Source of the DNA: Thermoplasmata archaeon
Lineage (GTDB): Archaea > Thermoplasmatota > Thermoplasmata > Lutacidiplasmatales > UBA184
DNA: 64,000 bases
Direction: 5' to 3'
NCBI GenBank assembly: GCA_022750455.1
Contig: JAKIVR010000003.1
Span: 4,457 to 68,456 of the forward strand
Shown: positions 1,295 to 17,633 of the stretch, piece after piece
Layout: each line of letters opens with the position of its first letter
Position numbering within the stretch: the stretch's first letter is position 1
Position numbers and translations under genes: made by a program
Notes under the pieces: model-generated
Database searches by the model: none
What the model saw: only the letters and a program-made list of their open reading frames with translations
What the model was told of the DNA's origin: nothing

Positions 1295-3412
1295 TTGCAG
1301 GTTGGGGCATGCGCGCATCACCGCGGCGTGGGACGGGCTAGCAGCGGGCAAGCTGGTCGTTGGCTCGGTGCCGGTTTCATCCTGTTCGTGCTGCTCATCT
1401 CCGCGCTCTCGGGGAACGGCAGCCGCGTGGTCGCCACCCCCACGCTCAACGTGGCGGCCCCCACCGGCGCCGGCACCCACGCGCTGAGCGCGGTCCACCC
1501 GGCCGCCTCGACCGACAATAACGAGTACTGCTCCAAGATCAATGCGACGATCTGCGTCGCGGTCTACAACGGTTCGCCGGATATCGTGCCGAACCCCGGG
1601 AACCTCGTCTCCTCCGTGATGCCGAACGCGACCGACTCTGTCAACCTCTGGATCAAGTCCCGCTTCCCCCTCACCTGGATCAACGCGGCGCTGAGCGGCG
1701 TCTACGCACCGATCCGCATCAACGTCAGTGGCGTTCTCTGGAACGGAAACCTCTGGATGAACCCGTACGACGGGACCGTCTGGCATGCGGACGGCGGGAG
1801 CGGTGGCGCCAGCAGCCAGCCGTACTACACGCCGGCCCCGCTCAACACGGTGAACAACAAGACCTACCCGTACTGGTACAGCGTCACCATCGCCAACCAC
1901 TCGGAGAACGGAGGCCCCAACTTCTTCGCCGGTGAGTTCGTGACCTGGTGGATCTACATCCTCTCCAACAACTCCTGCTCGACCCCGTCGTGCTACACGC
2001 ACACCCAGAGCCCGACGTTCCACTACCGGATCGCGGGAGCTTGGGCGTACTCTCCCTACGCCGGCGCCGGAGAGTACGGTGGGGCCGACGCCTGGGACCA
2101 GGACCTGTACGAGCACCAGACCCCGCTCGCGCCGAACTGGAACGATTCCGTGATCGTCTCCATCATGACGACCGAGGCCGATATCCTCAATCGCACGACG
2201 ATCGGGGCGGCGTGGTTGACCGTCGGGGCGATCACGCCCGCCGGCTTCGTCCTTCCGAATCTCACCCTCACCTTCCCCGTCACCCTCCAAGGTGGGTCGG
2301 TCGGCGCCGTCCAGACCACCGTCACGATCCCGAACGCGTACTCGGCCGTCCCTGGGACGATCGTCAGCTACTCGATCACCGCGTACGACTCGGCGAAGGG
2401 GGAGACGGACCAGATCGTCACCTCCGCGTTCACCTTCACTGTCGGAGGGAACGGCACGTTCCTCTCCGGACTCTTCGAGGACGACCTCTCGCTGGTGGCC
2501 ACCCCGTCGACCGCGATCGTCGATTGGAACGCCACGCCACGGGGGGGAGCGCCGCCGCCGAGCATCCCGGAAGGGACGAACGTCAGCTTGGTGCTCTCCA
2601 GCCTCGACACCTCGACGGCGATCCTGACCTCCGAGGTCCAGTACTCGTTCTCCTTCCCCGGTCTGACGGGCGCCTCCAGCGGGACCGTGCTGCTCAGCCG
2701 GATCAACTCGACGACGGAGCAGGGCCAGATCCCCGCGCTCCCCCTCGGGGCGTGGGTCAACTTCACCGTCTACGCCTGGGATTACGTGAACAACCTGGAG
2801 ATCTCCAAGACCTACACCTACTCCACGACGACGTTCGCGAACGCGGTGACGACCGTCGCGCCGAACCTGGCGTTCTTCAACGTCTACGTCTACGATAACG
2901 GGACCCACGAGTGGGTCACGGGAGCCCAGGTCACCGTGAGCGGCTCCAACGGGTTCATCGACTCGGTGTCGACGACGACGTACGGGGTCACCTATCCGAA
3001 CACCACCGGCCACCCGTACGTCCCGCTGCTGCTGCCGGCGAACGTGACGTACAACATCACGGTCCGGGACCCGAGCTTCCAGCCGGTCGGCGCGGTCGCG
3101 GGTAACCCGGTCTCCGTCTTCTTCCTCGCGGCCCCGGAGTCGGGGATCGCGAAGAACCCTTCAGGGACCGAAGCCCCCATCGCGGTCGCCTCGACCTACA
3201 CCGTGATCGAGTCGGGGCTCGGCATCTACTTCTGGCTGAACGCCACGCCGCCCGGGCCCGCGTACTCGCACCCCGCCCAACTGGACGGGTCGTTGGCGAT
3301 CGCACCGTTGGCGACACTGTTGGTGACCTGCCTCGCCGGGCTGGGGTTCCTGCTCTGGTGGCGGCAGATCCGGGCGAAACGCCGGGAACAGGAGAAACGG
3401 ATCACCCTATGA
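1295..3412 (+). CDS. bitopic cell-surface glycoprotein (N-terminal signal/TM anchor, C-terminal TM + basic tail)
   Basis: Hydrophobic N-terminus LGAGFILFVLLISALSG. About 20 N-x-S/T sequons. C-terminal helix LLVTCLAGLGFLLWW followed by the tail RQIRAKRREQEKRITL. Start codon uncertain (TTG 1295 or GTG 1328). Confidence 0.7.
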   Translation: MQVGACAHHRGVGRASSGQAGRWLGAGFILFVLLISALSGNGSRVVATPTLNVAAPTGAGTHALSAVHPAASTDNNEYCSKINATICVAVYNGSPDIVPNPGNLVSSVMPNATDSVNLWIKSRFPLTWINAALSGVYAPIRINVSGVLWNGNLWMNPYDGTVWHADGGSGGASSQPYYTPAPLNTVNNKTYPYWYSVTIANHSENGGPNFFAGEFVTWWIYILSNNSCSTPSCYTHTQSPTFHYRIAGAWAYSPYAGAGEYGGADAWDQDLYEHQTPLAPNWNDSVIVSIMTTEADILNRTTIGAAWLTVGAITPAGFVLPNLTLTFPVTLQGGSVGAVQTTVTIPNAYSAVPGTIVSYSITAYDSAKGETDQIVTSAFTFTVGGNGTFLSGLFEDDLSLVATPSTAIVDWNATPRGGAPPPSIPEGTNVSLVLSSLDTSTAILTSEVQYSFSFPGLTGASSGTVLLSRINSTTEQGQIPALPLGAWVNFTVYAWDYVNNLEISKTYTYSTTTFANAVTTVAPNLAFFNVYVYDNGTHEWVTGAQVTVSGSNGFIDSVSTTTYGVTYPNTTGHPYVPLLLPANVTYNITVRDPSFQPVGAVAGNPVSVFFLAAPESGIAKNPSGTEAPIAVASTYTVIESGLGIYFWLNATPPGPAYSHPAQLDGSLAIAPLATLLVTCLAGLGFLLWWRQIRAKRREQEKRITL

Positions 3413-5295
3413 GTCGAGCCGCCGTCTGGGCCGTCGTTCTGGTGGCCGGTTTCCTCCTCTCCGGACTCGTCACGGCGGTTTCGTACACGACCGAGAGCGC
3501 CCCGGTCTCCCACGCCGCCCCGATGCCGTTCAAGATCCTCACGCCGTCGGCCCCCGACTCCCGGGTGACCACCGCGTCCGGCTCGACGCCCCTCGTGTCG
3601 ACGCACGGCACTTGGACAACGTCTTCGTTCTTCAACAACATTCAAGTGACGGTCTCCGACCCGTACGTCGGTCCGTTCTCGCAGTTCGCCACGGTCCCGA
3701 CGATCAACACGATCCCGATGGCGGCGACCGGGTTCTGGCTGAACATCTCCACGGACATCCCGATTTTCACCGCGAACATCACCATCTGGGGCAACCAGTG
3801 GCCGGACCGGAACGTCTCCGAACCGATCTCCGGGTTCAACCCCTCGGCCCCGGCGACGTTCTCGATGCTGGTGAACCCGGCCCCCGCGAACAACACCGCC
3901 TCATTCTACTTCAACTGCCTCGAGTACTTCTGGCCCGGCTCCAGCCTCGGGTTCAACCTGAGCGTCACTGGGAACCCGTCGTACCATCCGAGCCCCTCAA
4001 CGTTGTGGTCGGCGGGACCTCCGGGGCAGGGAGCGGGTCAGTACGCGTCCGAGTGGCCGGCGGGGAGCGCCGACTATGCGACGTGGCTCGCCAACGTCCA
4101 GACCCCGTGGATCTCTCCCCAGTTCAACAGCTCGATCATCGTCTCGACCTCCCCGTCGGTCCTGACGAGCCCGGCGTACGAGCCGAACTCGGTGCAGACG
4201 CTGCAGATCTACCTCACGCCGGTCCAACTTCCGGGATTCCCGACCGCGACGATCCCCGCGGCCCAGATCAACTACACCGTGGTGCAAGGGGTCAAGCACG
4301 ACGTCTACATCGTCGACTTCATCCCCCCGAACGGGACGCTCGCCTACCTCCCGGCGCCGATCGGACCGTTCCCGAACTCCACGATCTTCTTCAACGTCAC
4401 CGCGTGGCTTCCGTGGAACGGGGGCTCCGGCGAGGTCGATCCGATCTACAGCCCGATCTACGAGTTCAAGTGGTCCCCGAACGGCGGCTGGGTCTTCCCG
4501 GACCAGCCCCTCCTGAACAACGTCGCCATGTACTGCAATCCGGACATCCTCTCGGCTCCGAACACGGTCATCCCGGCGGGACAGCCCGTGACGTGCAACA
4601 TCAATGAGCCGACGCCCAACGTCACGATGAGCCTCTCCCAGATCAACTACGTCTTCACCGATGGCGTCGGTCGGCACTCGGGCACGCTCCCGATGACCCT
4701 CAGCTCGGCGAACAACGCCTCGTCGGTCACGATCCCCGGGCTGCCCCCGGATACGACCCTGACGTTCTTCGTGGAAGCGAAGGATTTCATGGGGAACCCC
4801 GTCTTCTCCCAGAACTTCACCTACCGCACCTCCACCTCCCCCCCGGCCACTCTCCCGGGAGGTCGGGGCCTCTTCTTCTTCGAAGGGCTCGACATCTCCG
4901 GGACCGGGCTGATCCCGAACCTCCAGTTCACGATCTCCAACGCGACGTGGAGCGAGAGCCGCAACGGCAGCTCCCTCGGCTTCGGCTTCCCGCTCATCCC
5001 GGGCAGTGAGACGCTGTTGCTCCCGCTCGGGGCCGGCGCCTATCTGCTGACCGTGACGGCGTTCGGCCAGACCCAGACGGCGACGGTGAACGTCGCACCG
5101 GGGAATCCGTTCACGGTCCTCTTCTACTTCGCCTCGCAGCCGATCGCCCCGACCGGCGAGTCCAATCTACCCGTGATGACCGTCGCGAGCGGGGGCGGAT
5201 TGATCTTCGCCGCCGTAGCGGCCGGAGTCACCGTGCCCTGGTTCAGCGATCGCCGCGCCAAGGCGCTCGCGGAGCAGCGGCGAGTCACGCTGTAA
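3409..5295 (+). CDS. bitopic cell-surface glycoprotein, paralog of the upstream gene
   Basis: ATGA overlap with the upstream stop. N-terminal helix VWAVVLVAGFLLSGLV. Many N-x-S/T sequons. C-terminal TM plus tail FSDRRAKALAEQRRVTL, the same tail motif as the upstream gene. Confidence 0.7.
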   Translation: MSRAAVWAVVLVAGFLLSGLVTAVSYTTESAPVSHAAPMPFKILTPSAPDSRVTTASGSTPLVSTHGTWTTSSFFNNIQVTVSDPYVGPFSQFATVPTINTIPMAATGFWLNISTDIPIFTANITIWGNQWPDRNVSEPISGFNPSAPATFSMLVNPAPANNTASFYFNCLEYFWPGSSLGFNLSVTGNPSYHPSPSTLWSAGPPGQGAGQYASEWPAGSADYATWLANVQTPWISPQFNSSIIVSTSPSVLTSPAYEPNSVQTLQIYLTPVQLPGFPTATIPAAQINYTVVQGVKHDVYIVDFIPPNGTLAYLPAPIGPFPNSTIFFNVTAWLPWNGGSGEVDPIYSPIYEFKWSPNGGWVFPDQPLLNNVAMYCNPDILSAPNTVIPAGQPVTCNINEPTPNVTMSLSQINYVFTDGVGRHSGTLPMTLSSANNASSVTIPGLPPDTTLTFFVEAKDFMGNPVFSQNFTYRTSTSPPATLPGGRGLFFFEGLDISGTGLIPNLQFTISNATWSESRNGSSLGFGFPLIPGSETLLLPLGAGAYLLTVTAFGQTQTATVNVAPGNPFTVLFYFASQPIAPTGESNLPVMTVASGGGLIFAAVAAGVTVPWFSDRRAKALAEQRRVTL

Positions 5296-5313
5296 GGAAA
5301 GAGGAGCCAAACG

Positions 5314-8300
5314 ATGAGTGGAGACCCTAACGAACCGACAACGCCGGCCCCCCGTCGAACGATCACTGGCACCGCGGCCCCCGCGGCCGCTGTGCCCGCA
5401 GGCGCCGCGGCTCCCACTCCCGCCCCTGTGGCTCCGGCGACACCCGCTCCCGCGCCAGCGCCGGCCAAACCCGCGACACCGTCGTTGCCCCGGCCTCCGG
5501 TGAAGGCCGGAACTCCGGCAACGCCGGGTCTTCCGGCCAAGCCCCGCCCCGCGGCGGCTCCCGCCGGGGTCAAGCCGAAGGGAACTTCGGCTCCGCTCGC
5601 CACCCAGCCGCGCCGCCCGACGACGCCCGCCCGTCCGCGGGGCGCGTCGCCGCCGGCCCGTCGCCCTCCCCAGGGCGGCATGTCGCTCGGAGGATTCGTC
5701 CCGCCCCGCGGCACCATGGGACACCGGACCGGTCTCGTCCTGCTCGTCGCCGGGATCATCCTGCTCGGCTCGGGGGTCGGACTGTACTTCACCTTCTACC
5801 CGGTCATCGCCAACACCCAGACCGCCGCCGGGTTCCTCTCGACCTCGAACGCGCAGCTGTTCACCAACGACCCGGGCGTGAAGGCCGTCCACCTGACCAG
5901 CTCGAGTGAGAAGGTCGGGGCCTCGGTCTACATCCTCGATACGGTAAGCTCCGTCCAGTACAACGCCTCGGCCGGCGTCACCTTACTGACATTCCAATCG
6001 ATCTCGAACGAACCGACGAACGAACGGGCGACGCAGTCGTCGTTGGCCCAGCTGCTGTTCGGAACGTTCTCCGGTTCGATCTCATGGCTCAAATCCGGCG
6101 AGCAGATCCTGATGACGTTCACGATCGTCCAGGCCCAGCTCCCCGGCGGGGTCTACACCTCCCAGCCGTACCTCACTCTCGATGCGGCGGCCGACGCCAC
6201 GCACGCCTCGCTCTCCCCGGGCGGACCGACGGGGCTCGCGTCCCCGGCGATCGGGCAGCAGTACATCCAGCCCGGCTTCAACGTCGACTATCAAGGTCTC
6301 TTCATCTTCCTCGCCATCGTCGGCGGCCTGATCGTCCTCGGCGAGCTGTTCTTCGCGGGCGGCCTCGAGCGGTGGATTCGTAGTCAGACGAAGGACCCCC
6401 AGAACCTCGTCGTCGGCCTGATGGGCGCCATGACGGCGTTCGCGGGCTTCTTCATGCCGTTCTATCCGTGGCCGTACGTCCTCTTGTTCGTCGCCGGCAT
6501 CATGGCCGTCGCGTGGAAGTTCCCCCAGCTCTCCCTCGTGATGTTGTGTCTGATCGTCGTGCCGGAAGTGGCGTACCAGAGCGGCGCGCTCGGCCTCATC
6601 TTCCTGGTCGCGCTCATCCCGATCCTGTACGCGGGGCTCGTGGACTGGAGGTTCGGCTTCGGCGCCCTCCTCACCCTGTTCCTCGCACCGGTCGGACTGT
6701 CGTTCGCCGTGCCGATCTTCATGGCGCTGATCTTCTCCTTGTATCTCGGCCTCGCGGTCGCGGTCGCGGGCGGACTGCTCATCACGATCTTCGTCACGCT
6801 CGGGAACCTCCCGATGTTCGGGTACCTGGTGGGACCGGGCGCCTCGTCGAACCCGTCCCTGGTGGCCGGGCATTCGGCGGCGTTACTCCCGGCGCTCCCG
6901 TGGACGTTCTTCTCGCTCGGCTCCGTCGGGGCCGCCTACAGCAATCTCTTCAGCCCGAACTTCACGGTCCTGGCGGCCGGCTGGGGTGGGCTCGGATCCA
7001 TCGCGATCCCGCTGGCGGAGATTGGCTCGTGGTGCTTCGCGGCTTGGCTGATCGCGACGCAGCTCCACGACCGCGAGAAGCAGTCCCAGGAGAACCTGCT
7101 GCGGACCTCGTTCGCAGGCGGAGCGGTCGTCGCGGCCGTCGCCCTCGTCGGCTTCGCCTCGTTCAACTACATCCAGTGGCCGATGCTCGTCGTGCTCCTC
7201 TTCCTGCCCGCGATGGTCGCGGTCGCGGCCGGAGCTCTCGTCGTGCGCGACACGTTCGAGGCGTACTTCACGAGCCGCATGGGAGCGACCAGCGTCGGAA
7301 CACGCGTCGCCGAGATGAAAGGCCTCCAGAAGGTCACGTTCGAGATGGTCGGGGGTCTCCACGATGTCAAGGCCGACATCAAGGAGTCGATGATCATCCC
7401 GCTGATGCGGAAGGATATCACCACCCGGTTCCGACTGGAGCCGCCGAAGGGGTTGCTGCTGTTCGGACCGCCCGGGTGCGGCAAGACGATGCTCATGAAG
7501 GCGCTCGCGAGCGAGCTCGGGGTCGAGATGATCTCGATCAAGTGCTCGGACGTCATGAGCAAATGGTACGGCGAGTCGGAGAACAAGATCGCGGACCTCT
7601 TGCGCACCGCGCGCGAGCGAGCGCCGTGCATCCTGTTCATGGATGAAATCGACTCGATCGCCAAGCGCCGGGACATGTACACGGCGGACGATGTGACGCC
7701 GCGCCTTCTCTCGATCCTACTCTCGGAGATGGACGGGATCGAGAAGTCCGCGGGAGTCATCGTCGTCGGGTCCACGAACAAGCCCGACCTGATCGACCCG
7801 GCGCTGATGCGTCCGGGCCGTCTCGACAAGATCATCTACGTCCCGCCGCCCGACTTCAATGAGCGGATGGAGGTCGTCCACGTGCACATGCAGGGACGGC
7901 CGGTCTCGGGCGAGATCGACCTCGCTGAGATCGCGAAGAAGACCGAGCGGTTCTCCGGAGCCGACCTGGCGAACCTGGTGCGGGAAGCCGCCACCATCGC
8001 CGTCCGGCGCGAGATGATGAAGCAGGACGCGAGCGGCTCCATGACCATGGAGGACTTCCAGCAGGTCATTGGCCGGATCAAGCCGTCGATCTCGCTGCGG
8101 ATGCTCACCGACTACGAGACGATGAAGATGGACTATGAGCGCAAGATGCACCAGGTCCAGCGGATGGAACGCAAGGTCGTCGTCCACTGGGACGACGTCG
8201 GCGGTCTCACCGACATCAAGTCGGCGATCCGGGAGTACGTCGAGCTCCCGCTCACTCGCCCGGAGCTGATGGAGAGCTACAAGATCAAGACCGGTCGGGG

Positions 8301-9126
8301 CATCCTGCTCTTCGGACCCCCGGGATGCGGCAAGACGCACATCATGCGCGCGGCGGCGAACGAGCTGAACGTGCCGATGCAGATCGTCAACGGCCCCGAG
8401 CTCGTAAGCGCCCTCGCGGGACAGTCGGAAGCGGCCGTCCGGGACGTGCTGTACCGGGCCCGGGAGAACGCGCCGAGCATCGTCTTCTTCGATGAGATCG
8501 ATGCGTTGGCGTCGAAGGACTCGATGCGCACGCCCGAGGTGTCGCGCGCCGTGAGCCAGTTCCTGACGGAGATGGACGGCCTTCGCCCGAAGGACAAGGT
8601 CATCATCATCGCCACCACGAACCGTCCGCAGACCCTCGATCCGGCGCTGCTCCGTCCGGGCCGGTTCGACAAGATCTTCTACGTGCCGCCGCCCGACCTC
8701 GCGGCCCGCCAGGACATCTTCCGGATCCACCTGAAGGGAGTCCCGGTGGATGGCGCGGTCGATTTCGGCGTGCTCGCGCAGAACTCCGAAGGGTACTCGG
8801 GCGCGGACATCGCAGGTGCCGTCGACGAGGCGAAGCTGATCGCGTTGCGCTCGCAGCTGGTCCTCGAGACCGGCGCGCCGACCCCGGTCGGGGGACCCGC
8901 CGGTGGTCTCTTCGCGGCCGGCACCGCACGCGCCAGCCAACCGCAGCACGTCTTCGGCATGGGAGATCCGACCGGTCTGAACCAGGCCGCGGCCCCCGAG
9001 GCGGACGTCGCGGGGGTGCGCATGCAGGACCTGACCGCCGCGATCGCCAAGCAGAAGCCGAGCATCACGCCCGAAACGCTCGCGTGGGCCCAGGAGTTCA
9101 TCAAGTCGTATGGAACCCGGGGATGA
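5314..9126 (+). CDS. polytopic membrane protein fused to tandem AAA+ ATPase domains (Cdc48/VAT-type D1-D2)
   Basis: SD-like AGAGGAG 7 nt upstream of the ATG. Pro/Ala-rich N-terminal ~125 aa. About 10 hydrophobic helices between aa ~135 and 650. Two Walker A GPPGCGKT (nt ~7465-7488 and ~8314-8337). Walker B ILFMDEID / IVFFDEID. SRH-like GSTNKPDLIDPALMRPGRLDKIIYVPPPD / ATTNRPQTLDPALLRPGRFDKIFYVPPPD. Confidence 0.85.
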   Translation: MSGDPNEPTTPAPRRTITGTAAPAAAVPAGAAAPTPAPVAPATPAPAPAPAKPATPSLPRPPVKAGTPATPGLPAKPRPAAAPAGVKPKGTSAPLATQPRRPTTPARPRGASPPARRPPQGGMSLGGFVPPRGTMGHRTGLVLLVAGIILLGSGVGLYFTFYPVIANTQTAAGFLSTSNAQLFTNDPGVKAVHLTSSSEKVGASVYILDTVSSVQYNASAGVTLLTFQSISNEPTNERATQSSLAQLLFGTFSGSISWLKSGEQILMTFTIVQAQLPGGVYTSQPYLTLDAAADATHASLSPGGPTGLASPAIGQQYIQPGFNVDYQGLFIFLAIVGGLIVLGELFFAGGLERWIRSQTKDPQNLVVGLMGAMTAFAGFFMPFYPWPYVLLFVAGIMAVAWKFPQLSLVMLCLIVVPEVAYQSGALGLIFLVALIPILYAGLVDWRFGFGALLTLFLAPVGLSFAVPIFMALIFSLYLGLAVAVAGGLLITIFVTLGNLPMFGYLVGPGASSNPSLVAGHSAALLPALPWTFFSLGSVGAAYSNLFSPNFTVLAAGWGGLGSIAIPLAEIGSWCFAAWLIATQLHDREKQSQENLLRTSFAGGAVVAAVALVGFASFNYIQWPMLVVLLFLPAMVAVAAGALVVRDTFEAYFTSRMGATSVGTRVAEMKGLQKVTFEMVGGLHDVKADIKESMIIPLMRKDITTRFRLEPPKGLLLFGPPGCGKTMLMKALASELGVEMISIKCSDVMSKWYGESENKIADLLRTARERAPCILFMDEIDSIAKRRDMYTADDVTPRLLSILLSEMDGIEKSAGVIVVGSTNKPDLIDPALMRPGRLDKIIYVPPPDFNERMEVVHVHMQGRPVSGEIDLAEIAKKTERFSGADLANLVREAATIAVRREMMKQDASGSMTMEDFQQVIGRIKPSISLRMLTDYETMKMDYERKMHQVQRMERKVVVHWDDVGGLTDIKSAIREYVELPLTRPELMESYKIKTGRGILLFGPPGCGKTHIMRAAANELNVPMQIVNGPELVSALAGQSEAAVRDVLYRARENAPSIVFFDEIDALASKDSMRTPEVSRAVSQFLTEMDGLRPKDKVIIIATTNRPQTLDPALLRPGRFDKIFYVPPPDLAARQDIFRIHLKGVPVDGAVDFGVLAQNSEGYSGADIAGAVDEAKLIALRSQLVLETGAPTPVGGPAGGLFAAGTARASQPQHVFGMGDPTGLNQAAAPEADVAGVRMQDLTAAIAKQKPSITPETLAWAQEFIKSYGTRG

Positions 9127-9508
9127 GCTCGTCCGACCGACAGAGGGCGGGCGCCCCCGCCCATCGGACCGGCCGTCGCGGGACAAGATCTCCTCCGTCG
9201 GCCTCCCTCCTCGAGTCGACCCGGACGACCTCCCCGTCCCCCGGACGGAAGACCCGGCGTTCTGGCTGGCGGTCCTCATCGGGGCCGCGACGGTGTTCGC
9301 GGTCGGCGTCTACATGCCGTTCCGGTACGGGTACCCGTGGGAGTACCTCGCGTTCCCGTTCACCATCGCGGGCGGCGCGGTCGGCTCGATCGCCATCTCC
9401 CGCTGGCAGCTGCTCCGGCGCAGCCGCGCCCAGGAAGGCCGGGAGGAGCGGCTCGCCCAGCTCCCGAGCTTCGAGGTGTACACCCCCCCGAAGCCTCCCT
9501 CCTCCTGA
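9110..9508 (+). CDS. small membrane protein (2 predicted TM helices)
   Basis: Overlaps the stop of the AAA gene by 17 nt. Helices AFWLAVLIGAATVFAVGV and LAFPFTIAGGAVGSIAI. The N-terminal 50 aa are Pro/Arg-rich, so the true start may lie downstream. Confidence 0.4.
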   Translation: MEPGDELVRPTEGGRPRPSDRPSRDKISSVGLPPRVDPDDLPVPRTEDPAFWLAVLIGAATVFAVGVYMPFRYGYPWEYLAFPFTIAGGAVGSIAISRWQLLRRSRAQEGREERLAQLPSFEVYTPPKPPSS

Positions 9509-9695: not shown

Positions 9696-12600
9696 ATGAA
9701 AGCCGGAGCGTGGTCCACCCAGGTCGCCTTCAGTGTGAGCATCGTCGCGATCCTTCTCGCGTGGGGGATCGCCAACTCCGGGATCTCCGCGACCCCCTCT
9801 CCGACCTCGGTCAACCCCGGCGAAAAGATCTCCCTGCCGACGACGAGTTCGCCGAGCACCCACCCCGCCTCCTCCCCGAGTGCTGCCCCCGACACGTCCT
9901 CCGCGACTCCGACGTTCAAGGATTCGAGCGGCTCGCGGGCGGGTCCGACCCCTGCGACGCCTGGCCCCGCGGCCTGCCCCAATCCACCCATCTTCCTCCC
10001 GATGGGAGCCAACAATCTCCTGCCCCCGTACCCGGCGGTCGACAACACCACGAACTGGGTCGACGGGAGCCCCGGCTGCTTCGAGTTCTTCGACACGGTG
10101 CACGACTCGTTCTCCTCTGCCGAGGTTGGCTCCGGCGACCACTTCGAGGTACCGGTCGGACTGCCGGAGAATCCGGCCGGGAACGAATCGACCATCCTGG
10201 TCGACATCAACGTCGGCATGGTGGTTCAGGGCGACTCGAAGTCCCTCGGCGGCCAGTCGTGGGCTGAGGTCTACTTCGTCCCCGAAACCGGCTCCAACGC
10301 CTGGGACGGCTTCCTCGCCGTCTGGTCGGCGACGCAGAGTACCCTGTGGTACTCCCCTCCGTCGGGAGGGAACCCGGCCAGCTGCGGCGGGGAGTCCCAG
10401 GGCGCCGTCTGGACCAGCGGCACGTATTGCATCGTCGACGCCCTCAACGGCGGCGATGGCGAGAGCCTCGGCAGCTTCGCCGGCGGAGATTCGATGCTCG
10501 TCGCCATGGCCGGCACTCCCGCCGCCTCGAGTGGTATGATGGTCTGGGTCAACGACACCACGACCTCCACGGACACGTCGAACCAGCTGTCGGGCACGGA
10601 CACCAGCAGCGACTTCACGTTCACCCCCGCGTTCAAGAGCGCGTGCCTGGATGCGTGCGAACTGAACTGGTCGGGCGAGTTCGGCCTCGGGGTCGGGGTC
10701 GATCTCTGCGACAGCACGATCATCGGTGGCGACTGCTTCTCCTACGACGACTCGTACTGGAATGAGAGCTCCCCGATGGAGATCGGCGTCCCGGAGTACA
10801 TGTCGGGGGGCACCTACTCGGGCCAGTACCTGGTGCTCGCGCCGCAGTCGCTCTCGGGACACTGCTCCGGGGTGAGCACGATGCCCCCCACCGTCGTGCA
10901 ATGCTCGACGCCCGCGCAATCGTTCGGCTTCTATCCGGCGTGGAGCTTCAACGGCACGGGTCTCAACTTCGGCTCCACCTGGCCGTGGTCGATCGTCACC
11001 TGGGGCGGAGGGTTCGTCGAGTTCGGGACGTACGGGGGGCTGACGGACGACATCCCGCTCTTCCCCGACAATCCGGTGAACTCGTCCGATGACGGCTTCA
11101 TCCCCTCGGGGAGCGGCCTGACGGTCCACGCCCGCATCGCCGCGTACGGCACCGTGACCCAGGCGTCCCTGAACTACACCATCAACGGCGCCGGAGGGAA
11201 CAACCTCACGATGACGCTCACCTCGGGGAACACCGAGGATGGGAACTACACCGCTACGATCCCTTCGGGCGCCGACGGCACGATCGCGTTCCGGATCTGG
11301 GCGACGGACCTCGCCGGGGCGATCGTCCCCGGACCGTCCCCGCCCGCCCACGCCTCGATCGTCTACCGGGGCGCGCTCCCCAACTTCCAGGTCTCGGTCC
11401 TCACCACGCAGCCCGGGTGCGGCGGGGTGCTGTTCAACGGCACGGAGTACGCCGGCGGCCAGGTCATCACGACGACCCCCGGGTACTTCTCCCTCCAGGC
11501 GATCGCGTGCTATCCGTTCGTCTTCGCCAACTGGTGGACGTCACCCGGCGTGCAACCTCCCCCCTCGGTGAGCGGGACCGTCGGGATCTCGGCCTCCGGG
11601 ACGTTGCAGGAGAACCAGACGTACATCCGTCCGGACGACTCCGTGACCTTGGACTCGAACCCGAGCGGTTGCGCGGCCGTCTACGTCAACAACACGGACT
11701 ACACCACTCCCCTGGTCGTCCAGCTCCCCGGTCCCGCGATCCCCGGGGGCGTGGCGGAGTACACCCTCGGCGTCGCCGCGTGCGGCGGCTACGACTTCAG
11801 CGGATGGACCGTCGTGAACGCGGAGCCGTCCGCGGGCGGCATCTCGATCCTCGGGAACAACTTCAATCTGACCGGGAACGGGACGATCACGGAGAACTTC
11901 GTCAGCCTCTCCTCGAACCCTGTCGCGCTCGACTTCGACACGATCCCGGCGTCATGCCCGGGGGTCCTGTTCCAGGGGGTCGGGTACGTCAACGGGCAGT
12001 CGCTCGACGTCCTCCCGAACACCCCGTACGCGATCCACCAGGACCCGTGCGCGCACTACGGGTTCACGAACTTCTCGCTGACGAACGGGCTGACGATTGG
12101 CGACGGCAGCGTCACGGCGGCCCAAGGCGGGATCGTGACGGAGAACAACTACCACCTGACGCAGGTGACGCTCCTCACCCACCCGGCGGCGTGCGGGACC
12201 GTTGATTGGGACGGGGTCGACTACGCGAGCGGCAGCCCCGACTCCGACCTCAACCTGACCAACCACACCGTGCACACCGCGATCGGGGAGCCGTGCGCCG
12301 GCTACTACTTCATCGGCTTCCTCGCGATGGGCGGCGTCTCGGTGCTCGGCAACACCGTCTACGTCAACGCCTCGGGCTCGCTCCAGGCCGACTTCCTGAG
12401 CGGCAGTCCGAACGTCTTCGTCGGATTCCTCACCTCCCCGCCGTCGTGCGGCTCGATCTACCTCGAGGGCCAACAGTACAACAATAGCCAGTACACCCAC
12501 GTCGGGCCCGGCACCGTGTTCACCATCACCGCCGTCGCCTGCACCGACTATGGGTTCGTGTCGTGGATCACCAACTCCGGGGCGACGAACGGGATCTCCA

Positions 12601-13628
12601 TCGTCGCCGGGACCGCGTACATCAACGCGAGCGGCTCCATCGAGGCGCTGTTCGAGCCGCTGGTCGCGCTCGACCTGTACACCATCCCGACGTCGTGCGG
12701 GAACGTCGCGCGGGGCGGCGGCGTCAACCTGAACGGCGTCGCCTACGGCAACGGGGCGGTCGTGCAGGTCCCCGAAGGGAAGTCGTACCCGCTCAGCGCC
12801 GGCAGCTGCGCCGGCTACGTCTTCAGCGACTGGCAGAACAGCACCGGCAGCGAGCTCTCCCCGGGCCAGGTCACGGTCACCGGCCCCGCGATCCTCACGG
12901 CGGTGTTCATCCCGGCTCACTTTGCCGTCACGGTCCTCTTGGGCGGGGTCAGCTGCGGGAGCGTCGAGCTCGACCATCAGGGGTTCGGCAACAACTCGAC
13001 GGTCCTGCTGCTCAACGGGTCGTACTCGATCTCGGCCGCGCCGTGCGCCGGCGAGCAGTTGCTCGGCTGGAACACGACCGGGGGGCTCAACGTCACCAAC
13101 GGGACGATCCGCGTCCTCGGACCCGGGATCGTCACCGCGGAGTACGGCTACATCCCGCTCGCGATTTCGCTCTCCGGAGCGAACAGCTCGTACACGCAGA
13201 CGCTCATCCTGTTCGAAGTGACGGTCGGCTCGCCGATCCCGCCGTACACCTACAACTACACGTGGAACTTCGGGGACGGGACGACGTATACCACCCCCGC
13301 GAACTTCACGAGCCACGCCTATGCGTCGTCCGGGACGTACACGGTCAAGGTCTCCGTCGAGGACCCGCAACACCGCGTCGCCACCCAGTCGATGACCGTC
13401 ATCGTGACGAGCCCGCCTCCGCTGAGCGGCCTGTCGCTGAGCGACACCGAGATCGCCATCTTGATCGGTGTGATCGCGCTGTTCGTCGTCGCGATCCTGA
13501 TCGTCCAGCGCCGCCAGAACACCGGCGGCTCCCCGGACGGCGAGGACGGTAGTTCTTCGACCGCAAATGCTCAAGAACTAGTGGGGTCATCGCCCCCGCC
13601 TCCCGTCGAAGACGAATCGACTCCCTAA
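9696..13628 (+). CDS. giant surface protein: signal/TM anchor, S/T/P linker, seven tandem ~90-aa Cys-pair repeats (Listeria-Bacteroides/InlB-B-repeat-like G-Y-x-F-x-x-W motif), PKD domain, C-terminal TM
   Basis: N-terminal helix VAFSVSIVAILLAWGIA. Repeats each carry [SG]CG...C[AT]xYxFxxW. PKD signature YNYTWNFGDGTTYT...GTYTVKVSV. C-terminal helix ILIGVIALFVVAILIV plus an acidic tail. Dozens of N-x-S/T sequons. Confidence 0.8.
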   Translation: MKAGAWSTQVAFSVSIVAILLAWGIANSGISATPSPTSVNPGEKISLPTTSSPSTHPASSPSAAPDTSSATPTFKDSSGSRAGPTPATPGPAACPNPPIFLPMGANNLLPPYPAVDNTTNWVDGSPGCFEFFDTVHDSFSSAEVGSGDHFEVPVGLPENPAGNESTILVDINVGMVVQGDSKSLGGQSWAEVYFVPETGSNAWDGFLAVWSATQSTLWYSPPSGGNPASCGGESQGAVWTSGTYCIVDALNGGDGESLGSFAGGDSMLVAMAGTPAASSGMMVWVNDTTTSTDTSNQLSGTDTSSDFTFTPAFKSACLDACELNWSGEFGLGVGVDLCDSTIIGGDCFSYDDSYWNESSPMEIGVPEYMSGGTYSGQYLVLAPQSLSGHCSGVSTMPPTVVQCSTPAQSFGFYPAWSFNGTGLNFGSTWPWSIVTWGGGFVEFGTYGGLTDDIPLFPDNPVNSSDDGFIPSGSGLTVHARIAAYGTVTQASLNYTINGAGGNNLTMTLTSGNTEDGNYTATIPSGADGTIAFRIWATDLAGAIVPGPSPPAHASIVYRGALPNFQVSVLTTQPGCGGVLFNGTEYAGGQVITTTPGYFSLQAIACYPFVFANWWTSPGVQPPPSVSGTVGISASGTLQENQTYIRPDDSVTLDSNPSGCAAVYVNNTDYTTPLVVQLPGPAIPGGVAEYTLGVAACGGYDFSGWTVVNAEPSAGGISILGNNFNLTGNGTITENFVSLSSNPVALDFDTIPASCPGVLFQGVGYVNGQSLDVLPNTPYAIHQDPCAHYGFTNFSLTNGLTIGDGSVTAAQGGIVTENNYHLTQVTLLTHPAACGTVDWDGVDYASGSPDSDLNLTNHTVHTAIGEPCAGYYFIGFLAMGGVSVLGNTVYVNASGSLQADFLSGSPNVFVGFLTSPPSCGSIYLEGQQYNNSQYTHVGPGTVFTITAVACTDYGFVSWITNSGATNGISIVAGTAYINASGSIEALFEPLVALDLYTIPTSCGNVARGGGVNLNGVAYGNGAVVQVPEGKSYPLSAGSCAGYVFSDWQNSTGSELSPGQVTVTGPAILTAVFIPAHFAVTVLLGGVSCGSVELDHQGFGNNSTVLLLNGSYSISAAPCAGEQLLGWNTTGGLNVTNGTIRVLGPGIVTAEYGYIPLAISLSGANSSYTQTLILFEVTVGSPIPPYTYNYTWNFGDGTTYTTPANFTSHAYASSGTYTVKVSVEDPQHRVATQSMTVIVTSPPPLSGLSLSDTEIAILIGVIALFVVAILIVQRRQNTGGSPDGEDGSSSTANAQELVGSSPPPPVEDESTP
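11390..13270 (+). repeat. seven tandem ~270-nt coding repeats (protein-level ~90-aa Cys-pair modules) inside gene 9696-13628
   Basis: Recurring protein blocks [SG]CG.(V/I)...G..Y........P........AC..Y.F..W....G. Nucleotide identity between copies is low, suggesting ancient duplication. Confidence 0.6.
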
Positions 13629-13639
13629 GAGGAACCACA

Positions 13640-16600
13640 ATGATCGAGAATGGCCCGCAAGAGCACCTGTCGACGACGAACGCAACCCCGGCCGCGGCCG
13701 CTGGGAACTCCCGACGCCTCATGGCCGTCGCGTTGGCGGGGATGTTCATCGCCTCCACGGTGTTGATCTTCGCCATCACCGGAGTCCCGTTCGCCTCGAC
13801 GACGCACGCGGCTCCCCAGCCGGGGATGCCGTTCGCCGAGCCGCAGTCGATGGCGCACGCCGTCTCGCGGGGGGCGTCCCCATCGGCCGCCGCCCCAACG
13901 ACCACGACGCCCCTGGCCAGCTCGGCCGGTGCGAGTTTTCCCGTGGGTCCTTCCTTCCTGCACAGCGCCCCCTCCGCGAGCCTCTCTCCCCATAGCCTCC
14001 TCCCGGCCGGCGTGACGTTGCCCTCGACCGACAAGAGCTCGACCTCTTCGAGCCCGACCTCTTCGAGCCCGACCTCTTTCGGCCCCGTATCGGAGGACGC
14101 CTCGACGTCCCAGAACTGGTACGTGAACAACTGGTCGAGCGACTCCCAGGTGATCCAGGTCGGAGCGAGCAACCAATCGCTCGCCCTGACGGGGACGAGC
14201 GTAAACGGCCTCAACGGCTCGTATTTCTTCTACCAGCACGGCTTCACCTACGTCAGCACCACCTCGAACGGCGGTAAGACGTGGAAGACGACCTGGCCCG
14301 GCCAGGCGTCCGCGTGGACCGCGACTCCCTCCGCTCCCGCCTACGGGGACGTGAACGACGGATCCTCGGCGATCGCCTCCGACAGCACGGGGGACCTGTT
14401 CCTCGTCTCCACGTACGCCCAGGTCTGCTACGCGGATTACTACGGCCTGGACGAGTGGGAGAGCAACAACGGCATCGTCCCCTCCACGTATTGCAACTCC
14501 ACCGTCAACATCAGCGCGCCCGAAGGGTACTCGTTCGACGAGATGCCCGCCGGCGGCGGCTGGGCGGCCCCGACGGAGATCGACTCGTTCCAGCCGCTCG
14601 TATACGAGCAGCTCGACTTTGGCGGCTGCCCGAAGACGAATGAGCTCGTGTTCGGGAACTTCACCTACGGCTCGCCCCAGATCTTCTCGAGCGCGAACGG
14701 CCAGGACCTCTCGGTCGTCGTGCAGATCCTCAGTTTCGTGGATTCGGCGTGGACGTGCTCCGACAGCGCCTACAGCTCCGGCGGCACGGTCACCTTGGGC
14801 ACGTATTCGAGCTACTCCACCGACGGGGGCGCCTCTTGGTCGACCGTGACGAGCATCGGCGGGAACTACACGCCGTTCTCGACCGGCGCCTACAACACCC
14901 TCAACGGGGACGAGTACGACGCGTGGTTCGACGGCGACAACTCCACCGCGTGGGTCGATCAACCGCAGACGACCGACCAGACGAGCATCGCCTTCGCTCG
15001 GAGCACCGACAACGGGGCGACGTGGTCGACCCCGGGGGACATCGACGGCACGCTTCTCGTGAACTTCGACAACACCACCGCCTCCCCGTTCGTGGCGATC
15101 GGCAACCTGCCGTGGAGCAACCAGGCGCCGTCGCTCACAGTCGACAACTGGACCTCGTCGCCGTACTCCGGCAACCTCTACGTCGCCTTCGGAGACAACC
15201 GGACGGCGGTCGACCCGACCTCGGGCACCGGCGACCCGAGCGTGCGAATCGTCGTCTCCTCGGACAACGGCGTCTCGTGGGGCACCCCCGTCAATGTGAC
15301 GCCGGACTGCTTGGTGACCCCCGCCGACTGTGGCGGCGCCGCCGTCGTCTTCTATACGCCCCAGGTCGCGGTGACCCCGAACGGCAACGTCTGGGTCACG
15401 GTCATGGGATACGACACCTCCAGCGCCTCGACCCAGGAGTGGGTGCTCGTATCGACCGACGCGGGAGCGACGTGGTCGAGCCCGTTCGCGGTCTCCGACA
15501 CCGCGACCGCGATCGGCACCACGGTCGCGTTCCTGTACGACAACAATCCGCTGATCGCCCCGTACTTCACCGGGCCGGGTCTCGGCTTCCCGTGGGGGAA
15601 CGGGAACATCTTCCTCGGTCCTTCGTGGAACTACATCACAACGGGGACCCCCGGGTTCCAAGAGCCGACCGACGGGGCGGCCCCGGCGATCAACGGGATC
15701 GTGGCGACGACCGAAGGCCTGTTCAGCACCTGGACCGACTGCCGGGACGCGTCGAACTGCCTCACGGGGACCGGCAACTCCTCGATCTTCGCGGCGTACG
15801 TCTTGGGTCTGACCGTGAACGCCTCGGGCGCGAACGGCTTTGGGCCGCTCTCGGCGAGCGTCGCCATCAACTCCCTCGGGTCGGGCGTGACGGTCGACGT
15901 GACGCCCTCCCAGTCCGGACTCGTCGCCTTGGACGAGGGCGCGACGGTCTCGGCGCAGACCGCGTCGTCGATGTCGTACAACGCGACGTTCCTGCTCGGC
16001 TTCCAGGAGTTCAGCGGTGGGACGATCGACACGCTCTCCAATCCCGGTACGGGGACGGTCAGCAGTTCGAGCAGCCAGATCGAAGCGATCTTCACCCCCG
16101 AGCCCGCGGGATGGATCAACGGCACCGTGACGCCGACCTCGGCGAACCCGAAGGTCTACCTCAACGACGTCCAGGTGACCGACCTGCAGGTGCTGGGGCA
16201 CTCGTACTGGTTCAATGAGACCGTGCTCGCCGGCTCCTCCTACACCGTCTCGGCGACCGCGACCGATTACAACTCGACGTCCGCGCAGTGCCTGGTGAAC
16301 GCCTTCACGGTCTGCACGACGAGCCTCGTCCTCGTGCCCGAGGCCGGCTATCTGAACGACACGATCACGGCGGCGACCGGCGGGGTCCCCCAGGGATTGA
16401 CCGTGACGCTCGAGTCGTTGTCGGGCGTGAGCTATCCGTTCTCGGTGTCGCCGACCTCCGGTCTCTTCCATCTCGAAGCGCCGTGGGGGCCGTACTGGCT
16501 GAACGCCACCGCGACCGGGATGACGAGCTACTCGGGGACGATCACCCTACCCCCCGGCACCTCGGGGAGCCTGCACAACCTCGTGCTGTACGGCAGTCAC

Positions 16601-17332: not shown

Positions 17333-17334
17333 GA

Positions 17335-17633
17335 CCGGTGGAAGCCCTCTTCGAGGGCGACGGTTCAACCCCTTCCTACCTTTCTTTCCTTCTCTTCTCT
17401 GGGACCGAGCGTGGGCGGAGTCCGAACGTCCCCGGAGCGTTCGCGCCGTCGAGGTTTGCGCGCCGTGGACCGGAGACGACGAGGCCCGCGGCAAAAGTAG
17501 ATATGGCTCGGTCCATTCGACGTTCTTGGCCGGAGGACTTTTCCGGCGCTGTCCATGGAAGGGGAAGGCACCGACCGGCCGCGTTTGGAGAAGCTTCCCG
17601 ACACGGCGAGAATGAGTCCCGGTTCCACCGGGT
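17335..17633. other. candidate replication-origin region: inverted copies of CCGGTGGAA (ORB-core-like) flanking a pyrimidine-rich tract and the orc1 start
   Basis: CCGGTGGAAG at 17335-17344 (plus orientation). CCGGTGGAAC on the minus strand at 17621-17633. Polypyrimidine tract CCTTCCTACCTTTCTTTCCTTCTCTTCTCT at ~17379-17408. Confidence 0.3.
17493..17504 (+). promoter_or_regulatory. TATA-like element (AAAAGTAGATAT) upstream of orc1
   Basis: AT-rich dodecamer ~50 nt upstream of ATG 17555, in a 220-nt intergenic region. Confidence 0.35.

Follow-up and report, generated by a model that had tools for sequence, protein, structure and literature searches.

Type-II AAA+ unfoldases such as Cdc48, NSF, and Pex1/6 are soluble proteins that depend on adaptors to get to membranes, and the membrane-anchored AAA+ unfoldases that we know of (FtsH, Msp1, Bcs1, and LonB) are single rings with one or two anchor helices. 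For the classical-clade AAA+ translocases, including Cdc48/VAT, FtsH, and Msp1, a hexameric assembly and the threading of substrates from the N-terminal to the C-terminal face are established. Here, we describe a membrane-integrated tandem AAA+ ATPase (MCI4322575.1) from an uncultured soil archaeon of the Thermoplasmata, found in a window of 64,000 nucleotides (the whole stretch of DNA that was analyzed). The best sequence match of the ATPase in the PDB is VAT (entries 5g4g and 5vc7, with E-values of 1e-131 to 1e-138), and like VAT and the archaeal Cdc48 proteins it contains a tandem pair of classical AAA modules, each with a lid domain. Unlike VAT, however, it lacks the double-psi-barrel N-domain and carries a polytopic membrane domain with an ectoloop instead.

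The predicted arrangement also resembles that of FtsH, where an AAA ring sits under the membrane and is held by N-terminal transmembrane (TM) helices flanking an extracytoplasmic domain, and the presumed task is alike, namely, pulling membrane proteins out via their cytoplasmic ends. FtsH combines a single AAA module with two TM helices and an M41 protease in the same chain, whereas the archaeal ATPase has ~10-12 predicted helices and two modules; its Pfam scan returned no protease domain, and Peptidase_M41 was not among the listed matches. With 447 bits, the ATPase remains below the cut-off of the FtsH family (TIGR01241, 600 bits). Msp1/ATAD1, a dislocase of tail-anchored proteins, is likewise a membrane-anchored classical AAA protein without a protease, its clients are similarly single-pass proteins with short cytoplasmic tails as are the candidate clients of the ATPase, and its pore loop contains a W-Y aromatic pair, as in the K-W-Y-G-E-S sequence of the first module (D1) described below. 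In contrast to the polytopic ATPase with its two modules, Msp1/ATAD1 is a eukaryotic single ring with a single N-terminal TM helix and no ectodomain partners. NSF and Pex1/Pex6 are type-II AAA proteins whose tiers divide the labor, and their tiers are unequal like those of the ATPase (one conserved, gripping, and hydrolyzing, the other with intact or degenerate nucleotide motifs but without an aromatic pore loop). They are soluble and adaptor-recruited, whereas the ATPase has the membrane domain within its own polypeptide.

The initial annotation had taken this architecture for a likely undescribed machine. Literature searches on membrane-bound archaeal Cdc48, on AAA and S-layer proteins of Thermoplasmata, on tandem AAA modules with TM helices, and on fusions of S-components with AAA proteins found no description, the membrane and glycoprotein parts fall outside all Pfam and NCBIfam families, and the names in the source records are generic. 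We hold the architecture itself and its association with glycoproteins with high confidence.

Locus layout and integrity of the fusion

The locus (positions 1295-9508) consists of four tightly coupled plus-strand genes, and their reading frames were recovered as proposed. The first gene, gp1 (1295..3412), encodes a type-I surface glycoprotein of 705 aa from a TTG start and is followed by its paralogue gp2 (3409..5295; 628 aa from an ATG), by the ATPase gene (5314..9126; an uninterrupted ORF of 1270 aa), and by a gene for a small membrane protein of 132 aa (9110..9508). The reported junctions can all be read in the sequence: a 4-nt ATGA overlap joins gp1 and gp2 at 3409-3412, an 18-nt gap containing the motif aggag lies upstream of the ATG at 5314, and the ATG at 9110 precedes the ATPase stop codon (9124-9126), yielding a 17-nt overlap. 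GC3 values are uniform across the four ORFs (0.89-0.91). The NCBI annotation of the metagenome-assembled genome (MAG) gives identical 1270-, 628-, and 132-aa products, and only the start of gp1 differs (GTG at 1328, yielding 694 aa). Two genes for giant surface proteins follow on the same strand, giant1 (9696..13628; 1310 aa) and giant2 (13640..17332; 1230 aa). The upstream ORF 3-989 was rejected as a component of the system, as a homologue is absent from every related locus. An unrelated ABC-2 exporter is encoded ~38 kb from the locus.

The membrane-domain family is rare, with 40 representatives among 1.84 billion (1.84e9) proteins and occurrences in 46 of 185,579 species genomes. All source records that name an organism point to Thermoplasmatota, and the genome records of the 46 are titled Thermoplasmata, Thermoplasmatota, or, in two cases, "Methanobacteriota" MAG. 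Within this range, the fusion and its glycoproteins recur in other Thermoplasmatota genomes.

One concern was that a frameshift or misassembly might have joined an unrelated membrane-protein gene to a VAT-like gene. Three relatives do show frame breaks (L001, L003, and L025), and the break in L003 is located exactly at the TM/AAA junction. The breaks occur at a different place in each, however, the closely related L001 is intact where L003 is broken, and the glycoprotein genes of L001 and L025 are broken as well. The contigs of L001 and L025 are very long and named in the manner of long-read assemblers, which makes indel errors likely, and the breaks in all three relatives look like assembly errors. 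A natural split between the membrane and AAA parts was rejected because of the differing break positions and the broken glycoprotein genes. The TM-AAA fusion is a single continuous ORF in >30 independent genomes (for example, L004, L010, L016, L020, L022-24, L028, L031-L047, P0011, and P0018-P0031), and the 1270-aa product of the NCBI annotation agrees with it. The artefact explanation can therefore be regarded as effectively refuted already, with next to no chance of being correct.

Membrane part and AAA+ modules of the ATPase

From its N-terminus, the ATPase comprises a disordered tail, TM1, a 160-aa ectoloop, TM2, a polytopic core, and the modules D1 and D2. The N-terminal extension (aa 1-135; 5314..5718) is rich in Pro, Ala, and Thr, probably disordered, and cytoplasmic; it exists in close relatives, where its conservation is poor. 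The segment of TM1, ectoloop, and TM2 (aa 137-352; 5722..6369) starts with TM1 at aa 137-162, and according to hydropathy further hydrophobic segments are spread across aa 322-647. The beta-rich loop carries one sequon and matches the ~150-aa loop first described, apart from being slightly longer. It is restricted to the close clade, and the possibility that it (aa 163-321) is a remnant of a gp1/gp2 ectodomain was rejected (hhalign probability of <=3%).

The polytopic core (aa 356-647; 6379..7254) is conserved and marked by the motifs TKxP, PFYPW, AYQSxExG, DWRFG, TLGN, and WC. The initial annotation had placed ~10 TM helices where Cdc48 proteins carry their N-domain, and this is borne out by the ~10-12 predicted helices, by a Pfam scan that returned two PF00004 matches but neither CDC48_N nor CDC48_2 (double-psi barrel and beta-clam; E<=0.01), and by an AF2 model of aa 318-672, which forms a helical bundle (pLDDT of 86.8). 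About 140 residues of the ~290-residue core match the six-helix fold of ECF S-components (RibU, BioY, ThiT, and FolT), a fold that is also found in 5TMR-LYT sensors and MreD. In contrast to the ECF S-components, the bundle of the ATPase sits within a larger core and is fused to AAA+ modules, its sequence does not belong to the ECF S-component families (e.g., PF12822, PF07155, BioY, and ThiT), and the partner genes EcfT and EcfA/A' of ECF transporters are absent near the ATPase gene, with no EcfT or EcfA among the scanned genes of the window. A Pfam search with 10 membrane-domain sequences at E<=10 gave zero matches, including to PF07694, PF12822, and PF04093, and Foldseek with the membrane-domain model found nothing in the PDB at E<0.1.

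D1 begins ~30 residues past the last TM helix. The two complete AAA+ modules that had been proposed could be verified: Pfam finds two PF00004 matches (E of 5.9e-86 overall) and two AAA_lid_3 matches, and all hallmarks of classical AAA proteins are present, namely, Walker A (GPPGCGKT, twice), Walker B (DEID, twice), sensor-1, the Arg fingers of the SRH (RPGR(L/F)D), and the lid domain. D1 (aa 673-945; 7330..8148) combines GPPGCGKT, the pore loop SKWYGESE, DEID, a sensor-1 TN, and RPGRLD. All 40 loci whose ATPase part can be read have a canonical D1 that hardly varies, with a pore loop of the form S[KR]WYGESE. D2 (aa 946-1270; 8149..9126) has intact ATPase motifs and a non-aromatic pore loop 1 (SALAGQSE), and it ends in a Vps4_C-like C-terminal helix that is followed by the terminus KSYGTRG. 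In other clades, D2 is degenerate or lost.

The description of the ATPase as a Cdc48/VAT-like D1-D2 protein holds only for the classical AAA modules and fails for their order. D1 and D2 share 43.7% identity, and both align best to positions ~449-731 of TIGR01243, which is the D2 half of Cdc48, in place of the distinct D1-type and D2-type order of the CDC48 family; the score of 533 bits also stays below the cut-off of that family (802.65 bits). The identity of D1 to fragments of archaeal Cdc48 is ~44-49%, and a search for homologues of D1 returned archaeal Cdc48/VCP fragments with ~38-49% identity and no closer outgroup. Similarly, the proposed double ring is backed by two modules in this protein but is not part of the conserved core, because the D2 pore loop is non-aromatic here and D2 is degenerate or lost elsewhere. 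Unlike in VAT, the conserved motor is D1 and not D2. Archaeal Cdc48 members dock to the 20S proteasome with HbYX, a C-terminal motif with a penultimate Tyr. The ATPase ends in SYGTRG with its Tyr at position -5, and its C-terminus thus lends no support to an association with the 20S proteasome.

Surface glycoproteins, the small protein, and giant neighbors

With 24% identity over 502 aa (E=7e-9), the proteins gp1 and gp2 are paralogues whose similarity is weak yet significant. They contain 21 and 15 N-x-S/T sequons, respectively, about twice the shuffled expectation, whereas the cytoplasmic AAA part of the ATPase contains zero; the enrichment is limited to the predicted extracellular proteins. 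gp1 consists of an N-terminal signal-like segment, a ~640-aa ectodomain, and a C-terminal TM helix with a tail ending in EQEKRITL, and gp2 likewise has a C-terminal TM helix, with a tail terminating in EQRRVTL. While the paralogy suggested initially was confirmed, anchoring at both ends is not established because the N-terminal hydrophobic segments resemble Sec signal peptides. The cytoplasmic tail E[EQ][KR]R[IV][TS][LV]-COOH is near-invariant in nearly every intact separate glycoprotein from ~20 species, with conservative changes only (I/V, T/S, and L/V). The family is made up exclusively of Thermoplasmata proteins of ~670-710 aa. Neither gp1 nor gp2 matched a Pfam or NCBIfam family, and the profile of the family found no match among the PDB sequences.

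The connection between glycoproteins and ATPase is drawn most directly from a divergent sister clade, whose ATPase carries the glycoprotein ectodomain as an N-terminal fusion. Aligned with hhalign, the glycoprotein profile matches the N-terminal 440 aa of the divergent ATPases with a probability of 99.8-99.9% (E of 1e-27 to 2e-37), and the glycoprotein, TM, and AAA HMMs all match one ORF in 18 group-B loci. Such evidence is of the Rosetta-stone type (a separate gene in one lineage that is fused in another) and suggests that gp1 and gp2 are probably subunits of the ATPase machine. As the glycoprotein part is covalently continuous with the ATPase in the fused lineages, the glycoproteins themselves are unlikely to be its clients.

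The 132-aa small protein has ~2 TM helices and the C-terminal cytoplasmic motif PSFEVYTP, and most related loci have a gene for a small membrane protein after that of the ATPase. giant1 has a PKD domain, 31 sequons, an N-terminal hydrophobic segment, a C-terminal TM helix, and a disordered, acidic cytoplasmic tail, and giant2 has BNR and CarboxypepD_reg domains, 32 sequons, a C-terminal TM helix, and a disordered tail. These disordered tails measure 35-60 aa, and no conserved motif was found in them. giant1 is retained in ~14 close-clade loci and giant2 in ~11 loci, and group-B loci have a giant Ig protein and a VWA protein as neighbors. Judged by synteny alone, giant1 and giant2 are candidate clients of the ATPase.

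A putative dislocase and alternative readings

The explanation that we favor, with a confidence somewhat short of even, is a multisubunit machine built around a membrane-embedded AAA+ motor that acts as a dislocase or remodeler of surface proteins and occurs only in Thermoplasmatota. The dislocase or remodeling function as such is put forward more tentatively. By analogy to classical AAA proteins, the ATPase would assemble as a hexamer, and the entrance of D1 would sit directly beneath the membrane, an arrangement shared with FtsH and Msp1. gp1 and gp2 would be stable subunits that dock via their TM helix and their E[EQ][KR]R[IV][TS][LV]-COOH tail and together form an Ig-like glycosylated ectodomain crown on the complex. 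The aromatic pore loops of D1 (S-K-W-Y-G-E-S-E) could then grip single-pass surface proteins by their unstructured cytoplasmic tails, and the 35-60-aa tails of the neighboring giants would be obvious candidates. ATP hydrolysis would thread the clients, starting at the membrane, first through D1 and then through D2 into the cytosol, with extraction, turnover, or remodeling of surface proteins as the outcome, and D2 may supply ATP-dependent ring stability or power instead of grip.

One machine would hereby join a Cdc48-derived tandem motor, a polytopic domain with a partial transporter/sensor fold, and extracellular Ig-like glycoprotein modules. If surface proteins are indeed extracted or actuated, this would be an archaeal system dedicated to turning over or remodeling proteins of the cell surface, and also a simple model for the cooperation of motor and membrane conduit in dislocation (ERAD and organelle protein extraction). 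With this family, AAA+ joins the outputs that are coupled to the S-component fold. The natural variants, with a split or fused ectodomain and with an active, degenerate, or absent D2, offer a ready dissection of the essential parts. A bolder version, which we regard as rather doubtful, is a self-contained "retrotranslocon" or transmembrane force transducer in which six S-fold domains form a conduit or lateral gate and the D1 ring is the motor. Here, cytoplasmic ATP hydrolysis would pull, extract, or actuate giant glycosylated adhesins by their tails, and the Ig-like glycoprotein crown would pick clients or sense contact. If correct, prokaryotes would have a counterpart, made of a single polypeptide, to ERAD-type dislocation (channel plus Cdc48) or to the inside-out control known from integrins.

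A simple dislocase model leaves the S-component-like bundle without a role, and the bundle hints at ligand binding or sensing. The ATPase could accordingly be read as a ligand-gated AAA+ receptor, where the S-fold bundle and the Ig-like ectodomain sense an extracellular ligand or surface contact and the AAA+ modules, as cytoplasmic output, unfold or remodel cytoplasmic or membrane targets. The 5TMR-LYT sensor kinases, where the S-component fold acts as sensor, are the model for this reading. It is nevertheless rather unlikely, as the membrane domain matched none of the three Pfam families named above even at E<=10, the Foldseek search of the PDB was empty, the conserved giant neighbors are not explained by a receptor alone, and the survey of known S-fold fusions lists no combination with AAA+ (PMC11109136). 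The same bundle also inspires the idea of AAA+-energized uptake, in which bundle and ectodomain capture a small molecule, peptide, or protein and the AAA+ ring replaces the ECF ABC module, in the extreme case by pulling an extracellular polypeptide into the cell. The lack of EcfT/EcfA in or near the locus and the inward threading of classical AAA motors would fit, but the bundle covers only about half of the core, a conduit is hypothetical, and the conserved pore loops favor polypeptide over small-molecule substrates. We moreover know of no AAA+-driven importer in prokaryotes and consider uptake the least probable of the functional readings, even though the use of peptides and proteins is predicted for Thermoplasmatota of the source's order (PMC9287336).

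Two further readings dispense with a sensing role. A general quality-control unfoldase for membrane proteins, standing in for FtsH and feeding the proteasome or LonB with the glycoprotein genes only loosely related, is suggested by the classical AAA ring against the membrane, the aromatic pore loop, VAT/Cdc48 as the nearest AAA relatives, and the absence of FtsH from most archaea (to our knowledge). Yet an occurrence in 46 species of one phylum is odd for a housekeeping function, the ATPase has neither an HbYX motif nor a protease domain, and the fusion of glycoprotein ectodomain and ATPase together with the conserved surface-protein neighbors indicates a dedicated system, so that general quality control appears clearly unlikely. 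The synteny with giant Ig/PKD/VWA surface proteins could alternatively reflect a static platform or chaperone that organizes or inserts giant adhesin-like proteins and spends ATP on assembly and disassembly and not on threading. The non-gripping or degenerate D2 would agree with this, the D2 of NSF being a structural second tier, but the pore loop, Walker B, and Arg fingers of D1 are nearly invariant in all clades, which is the hallmark of a working translocase and renders the platform improbable.

Finally, membership in a defense system was considered and rejected. An IetS-type protease neighbor is absent from the locus, and the similarity to IetA or TRIP13 remains at the generic AAA level, as the ATPase scored 235 bits against IetA in PADLOC and 215 bits in NCBIfam, where the cut-off is 510 bits.

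Gene cluster and host

The four plus-strand ORFs claimed by the initial annotation were recovered by ORF reading, namely gp1 (1295..3412) and gp2 (3409..5295), encoding sequon-rich surface glycoproteins, the gene of a 1270-aa ATPase (5314..9126), and that of a 132-aa small membrane protein (9110..9508), all with a GC3 of 0.89-0.91. The tight junctions were confirmed directly in the sequence: gp1 and gp2 overlap in an ATGA at 3409-3412, an 18-nt spacer containing 'aggag' precedes the ATPase ATG at 5314, and the small-protein ATG at 9110 overlaps the ATPase stop at 9124-9126. A GGAGGG lies 11 nt upstream of the gp1 TTG at 1295, a TATA-like 'tctatatcc' is found ahead of gp1 near 1192-1200, and a gap of 187 nt follows the end of the small-protein gene at 9508. 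The NCBI annotation calls identical 1270-, 628-, and 132-aa proteins under the product names 'AAA family ATPase' or 'hypothetical protein' and places the gp1 start at GTG 1328. The window has a GC content of 67%, published Lutacidiplasmatales genomes are at approximately 69% (PMC9287336), and the nearest relative bearing a name in a scan of species genomes is a Candidatus Lutacidiplasmatales MAG.

A membrane core fused to two AAA modules

In the ATPase, Pfam matches at aa 714-844 and ~997-1113 bear out the two AAA modules (D1 and D2) that had been read from the sequence, together with two lid domains and, at the terminus, a Vps4_C-like helix, and no Pfam match to the Cdc48 N-domain was obtained, in line with its claimed absence. 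The N-terminal 135 residues are rich in Pro, Ala, and Thr; by hydropathy, TM1 (137-162) is followed by a 160-aa loop and hydrophobic segments at 322-647. Topology reading places both sequons (N217 and N549) in predicted extracellular segments, and the cytoplasmic AAA part contains none. For the topology parity to hold, one of the predicted helix pairs would have to be re-entrant. No model in Pfam or NCBIfam matches either the membrane domain or the glycoproteins, the membrane core has no match at the sequence level, and a Foldseek search of the PDB, with alignments spanning essentially the full model (248-401 alignment columns), returned no match with E<0.1. Judged by helix count, six short helices at aa ~363-497, which carry the most conserved motifs of the core, likely match the six-helix fold of ECF S-components. 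Both 5TMR-LYT kinases and MreD redeploy this fold as a sensor module, and an AAA+ fusion is absent from the survey describing it (PMC11109136).

With the membrane region as query, a word-indexed search retrieved 10 proteins, of which those with a source name all come from Thermoplasmata MAGs; an exhaustive HMMER search with a membrane-domain profile gave 40 matches among 1.84 billion representatives. Scanning 185,579 species genomes for the motif FxPFYPW[WP] yielded 46 loci, every one in a Thermoplasmata/Thermoplasmatota MAG (two carry the NCBI title 'Methanobacteriota'). The gene cluster is conserved and restricted to one phylum. The literature search found no description of the architecture, which is undescribed as far as the databases and literature searched show.

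A single polypeptide joins the membrane core to the AAA modules, and the fusion is real, being encoded by one uninterrupted ORF in more than 30 loci (e.g., P0011 with 1222 aa and P0018-P0031). Frame changes are present in three relatives. A natural split of the two parts was considered and rejected, since the breaks sit at differing sites and glycoprotein genes of L001 and L025 are broken too. In L003 the break falls exactly at the TM/AAA junction; its close relative L001 is uninterrupted there and has a break downstream of it, as well as a broken gp1 gene. Several genes are broken in L025. On these metagenome contigs, otherwise conserved genes contain multiple frameshifts in L001 and L025, both with assembler-style names, and a single one in L003. 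The frame changes are best explained as assembly indels, which likely also split the gene calls P0005, P0006, and P0010. The observation of the initial annotation is real, and richer than originally described.

Its assignment to a Cdc48/VAT-like D1-D2 type stands in part. The closest outside relatives are archaeal Cdc48/VCP proteins (~38-49% identity), and the best PDB match is VAT; however, for each of D1 and D2 (43.7% identical to each other) the strongest alignment is with the D2 half of the CDC48 model (279 and 263 bits, followed by PAN with 249 and 242 bits), and the whole ATPase reaches 533 bits, short of the CDC48 cut-off of 802.65. Across the 40 loci with a readable ATPase part, D1 is nearly invariant, with G[PA][PI]GCGKT, the aromatic pore loop S[KR]WYGESE, a Walker B of the DE[IV]D type, TN, and RPGR. 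The D2 of group A (window, L001-L028) retains Walker A, Walker B, sensor-1, and Arg fingers, and its pore loop 1, SALAGQSE, has no aromatic residue; D2 is degenerate in most of group B (L031-L049; e.g., GPKGCQKL, ITELE, SHYP) and entirely absent in one subclade (L041-43, L048-49). D1 is thus the conserved gripping motor and D2 auxiliary. Since ~30 residues separate D1 from the last TM helix, we infer that D1 faces the membrane. In one group-B ATPase, that of L035 (P0025), a C-terminal SAP (DNA/RNA-binding) motif follows D2 at aa 1336-1367, an unexpected feature in a membrane AAA protein.

Surface proteins around the ATPase

The proposed paralogy of gp1 and gp2 is borne out (24% identity over 502 aa, E=7e-9); both start with a signal-like segment and have a TM near the C-terminus, and their family comprises only Thermoplasmata proteins of ~670-710 aa. 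In group A, two gp genes lie directly 5' of the ATPase gene whenever the contig covers that region, whereas separate gp genes are absent from group B, where the ATPase ORF begins with a signal peptide and a ~350-aa ectodomain, after which come a TM helix and a linker rich in Lys and Glu. Profile-profile comparison showed this ectodomain to share homology with gp1/gp2 over their C-terminal two-thirds (probability 99.8-99.9%, E 1e-27 to 2e-37, ~280-310 columns), and the ATPase ORFs of 18 group-B loci are direct matches of the gp HMM (E 1e-11 to 1e-30). Being separate in one lineage and fused in another, the gp proteins provide 'Rosetta-stone' evidence for physical association with the ATPase, and the sister-clade fusion marks gp1 and gp2 as predicted subunits of its machine. 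No relationship to gp was found for the ATPase's own ectoloop (aa 163-321). Intact group-A paralogues both end in E[EQ][KR]R[IV][TS][LV]-COOH, ~20 residues past the TM, in ~20 species including the distant L026 and L027; the exceptions are a frameshifted copy in L001 and one with a single extra residue in L015. The near-invariance of this free C-terminus points to a putative docking peptide.

In most loci a small membrane-protein gene lies 3' of the ATPase gene. Among the window's nearest relatives (the close clade) it encodes ~115-135 aa with about two TM and a C-terminal PSFEVY[DST]P (LPSFEVYTPP in the window); outside this clade the protein has 3-4 TM and the motif GLRYPxGxxDW. A further recurrent C-terminus, ...K(V)G(V/M)G(A/S)(G)-COOH, occurs on intermediate-clade small membrane proteins (L020-L024, L026, L029) and on one VWA protein (L041), and may likewise serve in docking or recognition.

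Tail-anchored giant glycoproteins are also conserved neighbours. Next in order are giant1 (PKD; 9696..13628, +) in ~14 and giant2 (BNR/CarboxypepD_reg; 13640..17332, +) in ~11 close-clade loci, each with a C-terminal TM, an Arg cluster, and an acidic Gly/Ser/Pro-rich tail of 35-60 aa. The gp and giant proteins carry 15-32 sequons apiece, about twice the shuffled expectation. In group B, the genes upstream of the ATPase gene encode an Ig-repeat protein of ~2300-2440 aa, with 11 Big_7 and 6 Big_13 matches, and a VWA protein of ~470 aa. The giant Ig-repeat protein of L039 (3-7325) contains a helix-hairpin-helix/RNA_pol_A_CTD-like domain (aa 2339-2404) in its cytoplasmic tail, past the C-terminal TM. 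The fused group-B version is also present in L038, whose record (CP070751.1) is described as a 5.16-Mb Thermoplasmata MAG chromosome; there the cluster is followed by genes for a Toprim-domain protein and for a zinc-ribbon-bearing AAA protein of the Mg-chelatase/LonB-like type.

Possible function and window surroundings

The cluster would belong with the membrane-anchored AAA+ unfoldases as a variant of hypothetical function, and it is best, though tentatively, read as a machine dedicated to dislocating or remodelling surface proteins. By analogy with the established AAA+ mechanism, the ATPase would form a hexameric ring whose substrates enter D1 at the N-terminal, membrane-facing side and are threaded to the cytosol. 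It could act on the disordered cytoplasmic tails of surface proteins, with gp1/gp2 as an extracellular crown and the S-component-like bundle as lateral gate, conduit, or ligand site. A ligand-gated AAA+ receptor, with this bundle as its sensor, is an unlikely alternative. General membrane-protein quality control appears somewhat less probable still. We give little credence to an assembly platform operating without threading, and slightly less to an AAA-driven importer. Among the window genes scanned, none for EcfT/EcfA, the proteasome, or oligosaccharyltransferase lies near the cluster.

Outside the cluster, the window genes are ordinary housekeeping genes. Pfam, NCBIfam, and PADLOC gave no match for an ORF upstream of gp1 that is cut by the window start (3-989, 328 aa), and none of the 49 related loci contains a homologue. 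Immediately 3' of the surface-protein cluster lies a Cdc6/Orc1 gene (17555-18970), and a replication origin may be located near it, in the 17332-17555 gap. Further along, a 1137-aa NHL/beta-propeller repeat protein (55024-58437) is followed by two ORFs of ~470-490 aa with no significant Pfam match, a region that is possibly another surface-protein cluster.
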